Source: Mytilus trossulus
Taxonomy: Eukaryota
NCBI RefSeq assembly: GCF_036588685.1
Contig: NW_026963354.1
Span: 124,001-188,000, forward strand
Direction: 5' to 3'
DNA: 64,000 nucleotides
Shown here one piece after another: positions 9,301-11,261 of this stretch. The position numbers were made by a program, and so were the translations under genes. Under the pieces are notes generated by a model. It made no database searches. It saw nothing but the letters and a program-made list of their open reading frames with translations, and had not been told where the DNA came from. Position 1 is the first letter of the stretch; each line of letters opens with the position of its first letter.

Positions 9301-11261
9301 AGAGCAGGCCCCCTCTTAGGTCAGTTAGTGGGCCACCACTTATGAAAATTAGGGAATCACTGAAGCGTGACTTGAGCAGGCCCCCTCTTAGGTCAGTTAT
9401 TGGGCCCCACTTATGAAAATTTCTAGATCCGCCACTGTCATTGGCAATTATAATTCTCTGTTTTTTTATATCAATCCTTCTATCGTTTTTGCTGTCTTAC
9501 GCCTGACATCAATAAAACATCAGTTAATAAAAATAACCTTTTACAGCAAAGTGTGCAAAAATGAAATAGACGGTCGTATGGTTAAATAAATCTCCCCGTT
9601 CTGTGTGGAAAGAAACAGAATTGGATTGGTGTCTTTATATTCAAATTATTAATTATATCATAGAATCAGAACTTTAGTAAAAATCATACTCGTTCGATTC
9701 ATCAATCCTGATAAAATCACTTCTTTTTAAATTTTAATTTTAATCGCGCGATCTTGTCTGTCTAAATTTACCGTTAACATGGATAATGCATTAATTTGTT
9801 TGAATTATTGACGGAGACTGGACTTTAAACAAAATCAATTATTGATGTTATTGTCTTGACATTCTATTCTCTTAGTGGGTCCATCTTCCATCAATAGGTT
9901 ATTTGGAATGTATACCCAGTTAAGACTAAAAAATAGTTTTAATTTTTACTGATGACAACTTTGTGTCAGCCTTAACTTTTACTATATCAATGTTTTCTTA
10001 GAATACGGTCTGATTCTTTAGAATTCAGTAAAAATGATTTATTTGAATAGTCTGACCATAACTACTCTATTCTAAGGCTGCCATATTGATTTAATGATGG
10101 ATTTGTGTTCTGTATCTAGAGTCTGAGATACACGTGTGGAATCGATTTAATACTCCAAGACCAACTGAAGAGTGTCGGATTCCAACTATAATCAGTAAAC
10201 AAAGAAAATTGTCAACAAAGAACTTTTTACTTTAAATTTAAAACATATTTTTTTCAAAACACAATACTGAAATAGGTTAAAATTATTTTACACAACATAC
10301 ATGCAACATGTAACCTTACCATTATTTTGGCGGTTTTGAATTACAAAAATATCAGAATATGGTTATAATCTAAAGACACAATTCACACATTTCTGTTCTC
10401 TGTTGGAAGTCGCTTATCTGGTTAATTCTGTCTCCGTATCCCTAAAGCATCTATTCAATATTCGTGTAAATATTTACTGATGTAGTATTTGTGACGTAAC
10501 TCCAGAACATTTGCTCTGCATCTGGATACGCTGTTCTCTGCACGCGCCGTGTGTGTATATGATATGTGCGTGTGTTGTGTTTCTAAGGAATTTTATTCAG
10601 AAACGTCTGGCTTTCCTCACAATAAAATCCAAAGTATCAAAGATACAACCACATAAAAAGGGTTTGTCGATAATAAAATTTTCTATAAATTATTTGCCAT
10701 TAGCATTATTTAACATAATAATGAATATAATAATATTTTCCAATTTTAAAATAAAAGAAAGCTTTATAGAAAAAATTCTCAGAAATTTTGATTTACTACC
10801 ATATCAATATTTTTTTGGTAAAAAATAAAAAAATAATAAAGAAATGAAATAATCTAGCTATTTCTAAATCTATATATTTACAGATGAAACCTGTAATATA
10901 ATTTTGGAAAAGATATAAAATAACTTTTTTAATATTGGAAAATGACAAGACATGAATTCAAAAAAAAATCTATTAATATTCAGTTAATAATTGAAAATTT
11001 ACTCTCGCGTAAAATACATCTGTAAATGAAGCCTTTGTGTATTGACATAATTAATAATTAATGAGGACAGGTGATCGAAAGAACTTCCTTTCTATACAAC
11101 AGGTAATAATAGATACCAAGAAAATCAATATTAACCGTTAATGCAAATACCTTTAAAAGTGCAGCGATGGAAAACGGGTAATGGTCCAGTGAATTAGAAT
11201 CTTCATCAGAACCAAATGTAAAATTTCCAGAATCCTCGAAAATTCGGGTATCTAACTTCAT
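3308..11261 (-). CDS. Awh: LIM-homeobox protein, Arrowhead/Lhx6-8-like, copy A (~282 aa); exons 11261-11151, 8409-8237, 7618-7395, 5749-5471, 3369-3308
   Basis: All introns GT-AG, phases 0/2/1/1. LIM1 CYGC..WHIHCLRCSLC..FCKN; LIM2 CANC..[31 protein letters not shown]; homeodomain KRPRTCFTEDQIQILQSHF..NPDSQAMEKIA..KRVAQVWFQNARARQKK, close to Awh. AATAAA at 3227-3222. Confidence 0.9.
4541..5417. mobile_element. Foldback non-autonomous DNA transposon with TTAA target site (Kolobok-like), in intron 4 of Awh-like A
   Basis: TTAA|GGTCAAG ... CTTGACC|TTAA. The arms are long imperfect inverted repeats; the right arm is interrupted by a common-repeat fragment at ~5331-5392. Confidence 0.75.
5934..6147. 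mobile_element. MITE with TA flanks (Tc1/mariner-like)
   Basis: TA|CTGTAAATTCAGAAATT ... AATTTCTGAATCTACAG|TA. Confidence 0.75.
6678..6877. mobile_element. MITE with TA flanks
   Basis: TA|CTGTGGAT ... ATCCACAG|TA. Confidence 0.7.
9240..9437 (-). mobile_element. Short GC-rich MITE (CAGTGGCGGATCTAG end) with an internal ~60-bp duplication; related copy at ~49158-49300
   Basis: Ends in TCTAGATCCGCCACTG; interrupts a common repeat and is flanked by TCATT on both sides. Confidence 0.55.

Follow-up and report, generated by a model that had tools for sequence, protein, structure and literature searches.

What holds nine consecutive residues identical in three neighbouring genes when the proteins of two of them, A and B, are ~44% identical overall? 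The question is raised by a 64,000-nucleotide stretch of Mytilus trossulus DNA (contig NW_026963354.1, hereafter the window), in which three tandem LIM-homeodomain genes, all read from the minus strand and located at 11261-3308 (A), 23082-20974 (B) and 34288-32139 (C), encode the sequence FEDSGNFTF near the N-terminus of their products. The initial annotation of the window had proposed that this motif resembles the phosphodegrons bound by beta-TrCP, and had offered an aromatic-acidic activation or cofactor motif as the alternative.

Three tandem Arrowhead-like genes and their shared motif

Each of the three genes comprises five coding exons with GT-AG junctions throughout, and every first exon stops at a phase-0 GT donor. 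The product of A (282 aa) and the models of B (271 aa) and C (274 aa) are 100% identical to the Mytilus trossulus RefSeq proteins P0097, P0086 and P0087, respectively, all of them named Awh-like. The genes belong to the Awh/Lhx6/8 family according to the order of their domains, two LIM followed by a homeodomain (LIM, LIM and Homeodomain by Pfam in the exons of A), to their database names (LHX6_8 or Awh-like) and to the trees presented below. The first exons of A, B and C have no match in Pfam, and no Awh copies beyond these three were found in the 64-kb window. The features used in the following analysis are:

11151 to 11261, minus strand: paralogue A exon 1, 37 codons from the ATG to the phase-0 donor, encoding a tail predicted to be disordered
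3308 to 8409, minus strand: paralogue A exons 2-5, with Pfam LIM and Homeodomain matches and read joints
8409-8237, minus strand: A exon 2, LIM1
7618-7395, minus strand: A exon 3, LIM2
5749-5471, minus strand: A exon 4, homeodomain
3369-3308, minus strand: A exon 5, C-terminus
20974 to 23082, minus strand: paralogue B, five coding exons (exon 1 at 23082-22945), gene model
32139 to 34288, minus strand: paralogue C, five coding exons (exon 1 at 34288-34151), gene model
11214 to 11240, minus strand: FEDSGNFTF of paralogue A (residues 8-16), candidate beta-TrCP phosphodegron with S11 and T15 as acceptors, from sequence and conservation
23017 to 23043, minus strand: FEDSGNFTF of paralogue B (residues 14-22)
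34223 to 34249, minus strand: FEDSGNFTF of paralogue C (residues 14-22)

The initial annotation had made its reading depend on the splicing of exon 1 to exon 2, and for A this joint (11151->8409), which crosses a 2741-base intron with canonical ends, was found in contigs of four out of four runs from three studies. The other three introns of A were joined in 3/4, 4/4 and 3/4 runs. These four runs, whose contigs skip GT-AG introns, are guessed to be RNA, and reads were compared for A only. The contig that spans exons 1 and 2 of A (11151-11322 plus 8270-8409) has a depth of 9725 in run X3 versus 55-139 in the three other runs, which hints at one tissue or stage with a very high level of the A transcript, contig depth being unfit for ranking genes.

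The identity of FEDSGNFTF in A, B and C, always within exon 1, and the acidic Ser-rich stretch that follows it in each of them are as the initial annotation had described. Among the stretches in which A and B are identical, the motif, with nine residues, is surpassed only by the eleven residues of the homeodomain recognition helix, and it has been kept along stems of 1.62 (A) and 1.97 (B/C) changes per column in the tree. When the tail of A was shuffled 20,000 times and compared with that of B, the longest common run was six residues, found once, and a run of nine never appeared. The N-terminus of A had also been called otherwise unalignable; this was slightly too strong with respect to the region downstream of the motif, where a weak alignment exists (p=0.058).

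At the codon level, synonymous differences within the motif affect 5/9 codons between A and B, 6/9 between A and C, and 3/9 between B and C, while among the identical residues of the LIM and homeodomain regions the codons differ at 60/95, 58/97 and 45/179 positions, respectively. Since the motif codons of A and B/C have diverged at this background rate, the motif has been held at the protein level, in line with the selection previously proposed from the synonymous changes, and is as old as the split between A and B/C. Between B and C, DNA identity is 92% and 95% in exons 1 and 2, and 79% and 78% in exons 3 and 4; the region of high likeness spans exons 1-2 plus the upstream region (22484-23370 and 33675-34523), and the B and C genes of M. 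coruscus have three changes in common that are absent from those of M. trossulus. These sequence patterns suggest ongoing gene conversion in exons 1-2 of B and C. Because B and C are partly homogenised, the three genes represent two independent lineages (A and B/C) instead of three witnesses.

Searches for structural relatives of the first exons gave 0 matches in the PDB for exon 1 of B, and for exon 1 of A only the archaeal ribosomal protein L5, at chance level (E 0.88-0.91). The latter likeness (E 0.88) involves residues 3-23 of A (11255-11193, minus strand) and the L5 stretch FDDTGNFSFG. The ESM Atlas returned no usable match for residues 1-42 of A. Two other readings, an N-x-T glycosylation site and a likeness to an immunoglobulin strand motif, were rejected because the models have no signal peptide and a tail of this length could not hold a domain. 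Judged from the sequences compared, FEDSGNFTF is a real, selected and lineage-restricted motif.

Distribution of the motif in mytilids and other molluscs

Of 350 proteins compared, 216 combined two LIM patterns and WFQN with a tail of at least 20 residues; they gave 204 distinct tails, 192 of them from proteins other than mytilid A/B/C. The sample draws on the matches listed (120 of 642 and 150 of 22,043), and vertebrate Lhx6 and Lhx8 are barely represented in it. Among 26 mytilid A/B/C proteins tallied, 18 have FEDSGNFTF, P0008 has LEDSGNFTY, P0081 has FEDSGNFKF and 6 have no tail, the DSGNFT core being kept in 19 of the 20 that bear one. P0008 belongs to a divergent mussel protein, its exons being ~87% identical to those of A, and is altered solely in the first and last aromatic residues of the motif. 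P0081, one RefSeq copy of C from M. galloprovincialis, has Lys in place of Thr at position 6 (DSGNFK); since P0083, another model from the same species, keeps the Thr at that site, the Lys of P0081 is an allele or an error.

Among the matches listed, the mussel DSGxxT motif, searched as EDSG, is present in 0/192 of the other LIM-homeodomain tails sampled, and the looser pattern DSG.{2,3}[ST] in 3/192, compared with ~1% of shuffles. Among the sequences sampled, only mytilid A/B/C genes carry the motif. Mytilus also has a fourth Awh gene, of ancestral type and located elsewhere (P0139), with a tail that aligns to that of B (p=0.0003) and reads YEFTDS, without GNFTF, while the tail of the scallop protein P0140 contains FEYED; the aromatic-acidic front half of the motif is therefore its older part, and GNFTF is peculiar to A/B/C.

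The trees were built without the tails, the main one with 48 rows and two reduced ones with 27 and 26 rows, from which the abalone tandem genes and other long rows were left out. In the main tree, A joins B/C (92/65, with a long-branch warning) beside a divergent oyster Awh gene (90/85), and when either mussel group is removed the remaining one still joins the oyster gene (80/93 and 87/86), although none of these joins is starred. By its homeodomain, the divergent oyster gene corresponds to Cgi_Awh1, one of the two oyster genes, Cgi_Awh1 and Cgi_Awh2, named in PMC5322547. The mussel paralogues have the same two LIM domains and homeodomain as these, and A and B/C group with the gene that matches Cgi_Awh1; unlike the oyster Awh genes, those of the mussel comprise three tandem, fast-evolving copies in addition to the ancestral-type P0139.

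The tails of the divergent oyster Awh (P0005, P0033, P0102, P0118 and P0124) contain DSAF[AG][ED], which is similar to the non-canonical beta-TrCP degron of WEE1, DSAFQE, and these tails account for 5/6 matches of DS[GA]xx[STDE] in the 192 tails (among the matches listed). The oyster pattern was defined post hoc and aligns with a downstream SPDSVF block of B/C, not with FEDSGNFTF, and is therefore at best a parallel to the mussel motif. The oyster sister gene has long and short forms, the latter being tail-less (P0015, P0120-P0122 and P0125-P0128).

In Haliotis we observed many Awh-like paralogues of 220 residues (P0022, P0043 and P0104-P0117), which form a cluster of 27, with several per species, on a very long branch, and are apparently a separate expansion. 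The tails of these tandem genes carry LEES[AGTE]DF, with a local match to B (p=0.01). They align with the tail of the main abalone Awh (p=0.0003), and the genes stand apart from A/B/C in the tree; by these two observations, LEES.DF is likely separate from the mussel motif.

Fit to a beta-TrCP degron and competing explanations

In a degron, the part read by beta-TrCP would be D-S-G-x-x-T; with its Ser and Thr phosphorylated, SCF-beta-TrCP would bind the protein and direct it to the proteasome. According to PMC13097077, the binding of DpSGXXpS by beta-TrCP involves the Asp, the two phosphoserines and the backbone. The core D-S-G-x-x-S/T is present as DSGNFT in A, B and C. Supplementary Table 4 of PMC12900645 contains 28 published degrons, three of which have N at position 4 (IFNAR1 DSGNYS, USP37 and Vpu) and five T at position 6. 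In the beta-catenin scan of the same paper, in which degron-killing changes score ~20,000-30,000, the changes towards the mussel motif are tolerated (L31E 5777, I35N 3311, H36F 1982 and G38F 3321), and S37T, with 9014 the lowest of 19 at its site, is partly tolerated. Positions 4-6 (N, F and T) are thus compatible with docking as far as these known degrons and the scan extend. The counterpart of the Thr -> Lys change of P0081 is S37K, which with 23135 is degron-killing in the same data.

The mussel motif has in common with known DSGxx[ST] degrons (IFNAR1 DSGNYS, Vpu DSGNES and Bora DSGYNT; PMC12900645, PMC2287288 and PMC10470808) the D-S-G, two spacers and a final S/T; it resembles IFNAR1 in the N at position 4 and the aromatic at position 5, and Bora in the T at position 6. 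Like them, it is a short motif in a region of predicted disorder, with AlphaFold2 pLDDT values over residues 1-40 of 40-48 in A and 30-40 in B. It differs from them in its LIM-homeodomain host, in the lack of nearby lysines in B and C and in the invariance of nine residues. The tail of A has lysines at positions 2, 37 and 40 (K2, K37, K40), while B has none before residue 103 and C none before residue 90. Acceptor lysines near a beta-TrCP degron are usual, without being a strict requirement; ubiquitin would be placed on K2, K37 or K40 of A, whereas B and C would offer more distant lysines or the N-terminus.

A rough weighing of these features sets the chance of such a pattern in a conserved 9-residue block, ~1-2 in 1000, against a share of conserved transcription factor motifs that are such degrons of perhaps ~1/100, and gives approximate odds near three to one for a degron before the points against it are counted. 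Those points include the Lys of P0081, the lysine-poor tails of B and C, two unexplained Phe, the older front half of the motif and the restriction to mytilids. When they are set against the DSG-x-x-S/T spacing, the residues at positions 4-6 and the disordered context, the degron interpretation of the initial annotation is partly supported, and we consider that FEDSGNFTF is, on balance, probably a phosphodegron for beta-TrCP within an acidic, disordered tail.

If so, the E two residues before the Ser, together with the N two before and the F one after the Thr, would be read by a kinase, for which the Polo family is the most plausible choice, one that we hold to be reasonable though somewhat short of likely; the Thr would be phosphorylated first and the Ser second. 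By the preferences of human PLK1 (matrix from PMC9876800, supplement file 3), N at -2 ranks 2/20 and F at +1 ranks 1/20 for the Thr, and E at -2 of the Ser ranks 3/20. Compared with 13,429 Ser/Thr sites in other proteins of the collection, the degron Thr has the highest PLK1 score of the A, B and C tails (percentiles 98.3, 99.3 and 99.3) and the second-highest of that of P0008 (percentile 95.1), and treating the Thr as phosphorylated raises the degron Ser from percentile 88-93 to 97-98. The PLK2 matrix does not single out the Thr. Since the scoring was chosen after seeing the motif, comprised PLK1 and PLK2 only, and discriminated poorly among seven control sites, which fell between the 36th and 97th percentiles (Claspin Ser 36th, IkBa Ser 92nd), we treat the PLK match as a lead.

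Bora has a DSGxxT degron that is phosphorylated by Plk1 (PMC2287288), and in Rap1GAP the kinase docks on SSP (PMC4201484). The mussel motif shares with these Plk1-triggered degrons an acidic residue two before the Ser, and its Thr has a high PLK1 score; an SSP of the Rap1GAP type is found in the tails of B and C and in the degron-less P0139, but not in the tail of A. A GSK3-type Ser at +4 after the Thr is present in B and C, where A has Asp. An acidic residue does not prime at the equivalent site of beta-catenin (T41D 15781 and T41E 21641; PMC12900645), so a GSK3 relay of the beta-catenin type would be possible in B and C, but not in A.

The explanation that competes best with a degron is that the nine residues form a specific aromatic-acidic motif for binding a cofactor, possibly as a short hairpin around D-S-G-N upon binding, and that the match to a degron is incidental. 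It would explain why A and B/C agree at all nine positions when beta-TrCP reads four; the first F and the F preceding the Thr are accounted for by neither beta-TrCP nor PLK1 (PLK1 ranks 7 and 17 of 20). The three Phe within nine residues, the older, GNFT-less aromatic-acidic sequences of P0139 and P0140, the Thr -> Lys change of P0081 and the proximity of the B tail to the boundary of acidic activation domains (charge -9, WFYL 8) point in the same direction. However, the substitutions of P0008 fall only on the outer aromatics and spare DSGNFT, ancestral-type mollusc tails have a similar composition without the motif, and activation domains tend to lose exact motifs while staying functional (PMC13004512). 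Moreover, under a Staller-type formula (39-residue tile, charge of -9 or lower, WFYL of at least 7 and a diagonal criterion; PMC10550315), 0/4 tiles of A, 0/13 of B and 0/13 of C pass. The generic acidic activation domain contained in the initial annotation's alternative is therefore not favoured. Since the formula misses many true and phospho-activated domains, we keep the specific cofactor motif as a possibility, albeit a rather unlikely one. A degron and an activation function can also overlap.

Still more doubtful is a phospho-switch with a reader other than beta-TrCP, or a tail that folds back on the protein's own LIM domains. Paired BRCT domains read pS-x-x-F, and the LIM-interaction segment of Ldb1 binds LIM domains, so that the former could be the reader and the latter a model for the fold-back. 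S-G-N-F fits S-x-x-F, the residues of kinase type are conserved, and LEES[AGTE]DF of the abalone tandem genes has the same S-x-x-F spacing; yet those abalone tails derive from the main abalone Awh, in genes that lie apart from A/B/C. As for the fold-back, AlphaFold2 gave no confident tail structure on the LIM domains of A or B (pLDDT 30-48 over the motif region), which is weak evidence against it.

Finally, it is very improbable that the nine residues are identical through gene conversion or chance, without any function in the protein: exons 1-2 of B and C are indeed homogenised by conversion, but a recent conversion between A and B/C is ruled out by motif codons that differ at 5-6/9 positions, like the rest of the gene, no shuffle attained nine residues, and the 26-base motif is the best DNA match between A and B/C in 600 bases around exon 1, where the other matches have E values of 0.3 or worse.

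An eh1 match and a tail-less form in paralogue A

If FEDSGNFTF is a beta-TrCP degron, paralogue A is its best test case, owing to two additional features:

11154 to 11174, minus strand: FSIAALL, an exact match to the eh1 (Groucho/TLE-binding) consensus at the end of exon 1, in A only
10320 to 10322, minus strand: candidate alternative first exon in intron 1 of A, an ATG before a GTAAGG donor, the only such site found in that intron

FSIAALL fits every position of the eh1 consensus FS[VI]xx[IL][LM] (PMC4943189), lies outside the folded domains of A and is a candidate by its sequence. The match occurs in 4/12 mytilid tails, which are all four distinct A-type tails including that of P0008, and in no B/C tail; it is absent from P0139 and from all of the other LIM-homeodomain tails (0/192, among the matches listed), with a frequency of 0.00086 in shuffles. 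At its end the match runs into an old LLKT-type stretch that immediately precedes LIM1, and part of it may thus be inherited.

Tail-less A proteins, in which a Met stands directly before exon 2 (P0092, P0096, P0098-P0101 and P0044), are known from the annotations of M. edulis and M. californianus and from five unnamed assembled proteins. Use of the candidate alternative first exon would yield an isoform from which the degron and the eh1 match are removed together. The joint 10320->8409 is not among the 15 of ~149 read joints listed. A contig of run X7 matches 10449-10605, near the candidate exon, without differences.

These elements can be combined into a model of a cell-cycle-gated Arrowhead, in which a Polo/beta-TrCP degron would clear the long proteins in dividing cells, A would couple this to a newly acquired eh1 motif that recruits Groucho, and an alternative promoter would supply a stable, tail-less form, with a parallel in the oyster through a WEE1-type degron and a tail-less isoform; taken as a whole, we regard this model as improbable. 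Were it true, a LIM-homeodomain factor would have gained signal-controlled destruction after duplication, one copy would also have acquired a co-repressor motif, and the isoform switch of A would take both away. The class of mechanism is well known and the host is new, with a reach of one bivalve family. In the open-access literature, which mostly excludes subscription papers, we found no report of a beta-TrCP degron or an eh1 motif in Awh/Lhx6/8, and no study of the mussel A/B/C genes or of FEDSGNFTF.

The rest of the window contains the following features:

38559-43787, minus strand: multi-exon Hsp70-like gene with a weak Pfam HSP70 match (E 0.0038, below the cut-off), presumably HSPA12-like
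40924-41872, plus strand, within the Hsp70-like gene, and 54746-55489, minus strand: fragments that we take to be reverse-transcriptase-like
17247-18733, 24377-25447, 45471-48150 and 58147-62387: long tandem repeat arrays, located between and beyond the genes
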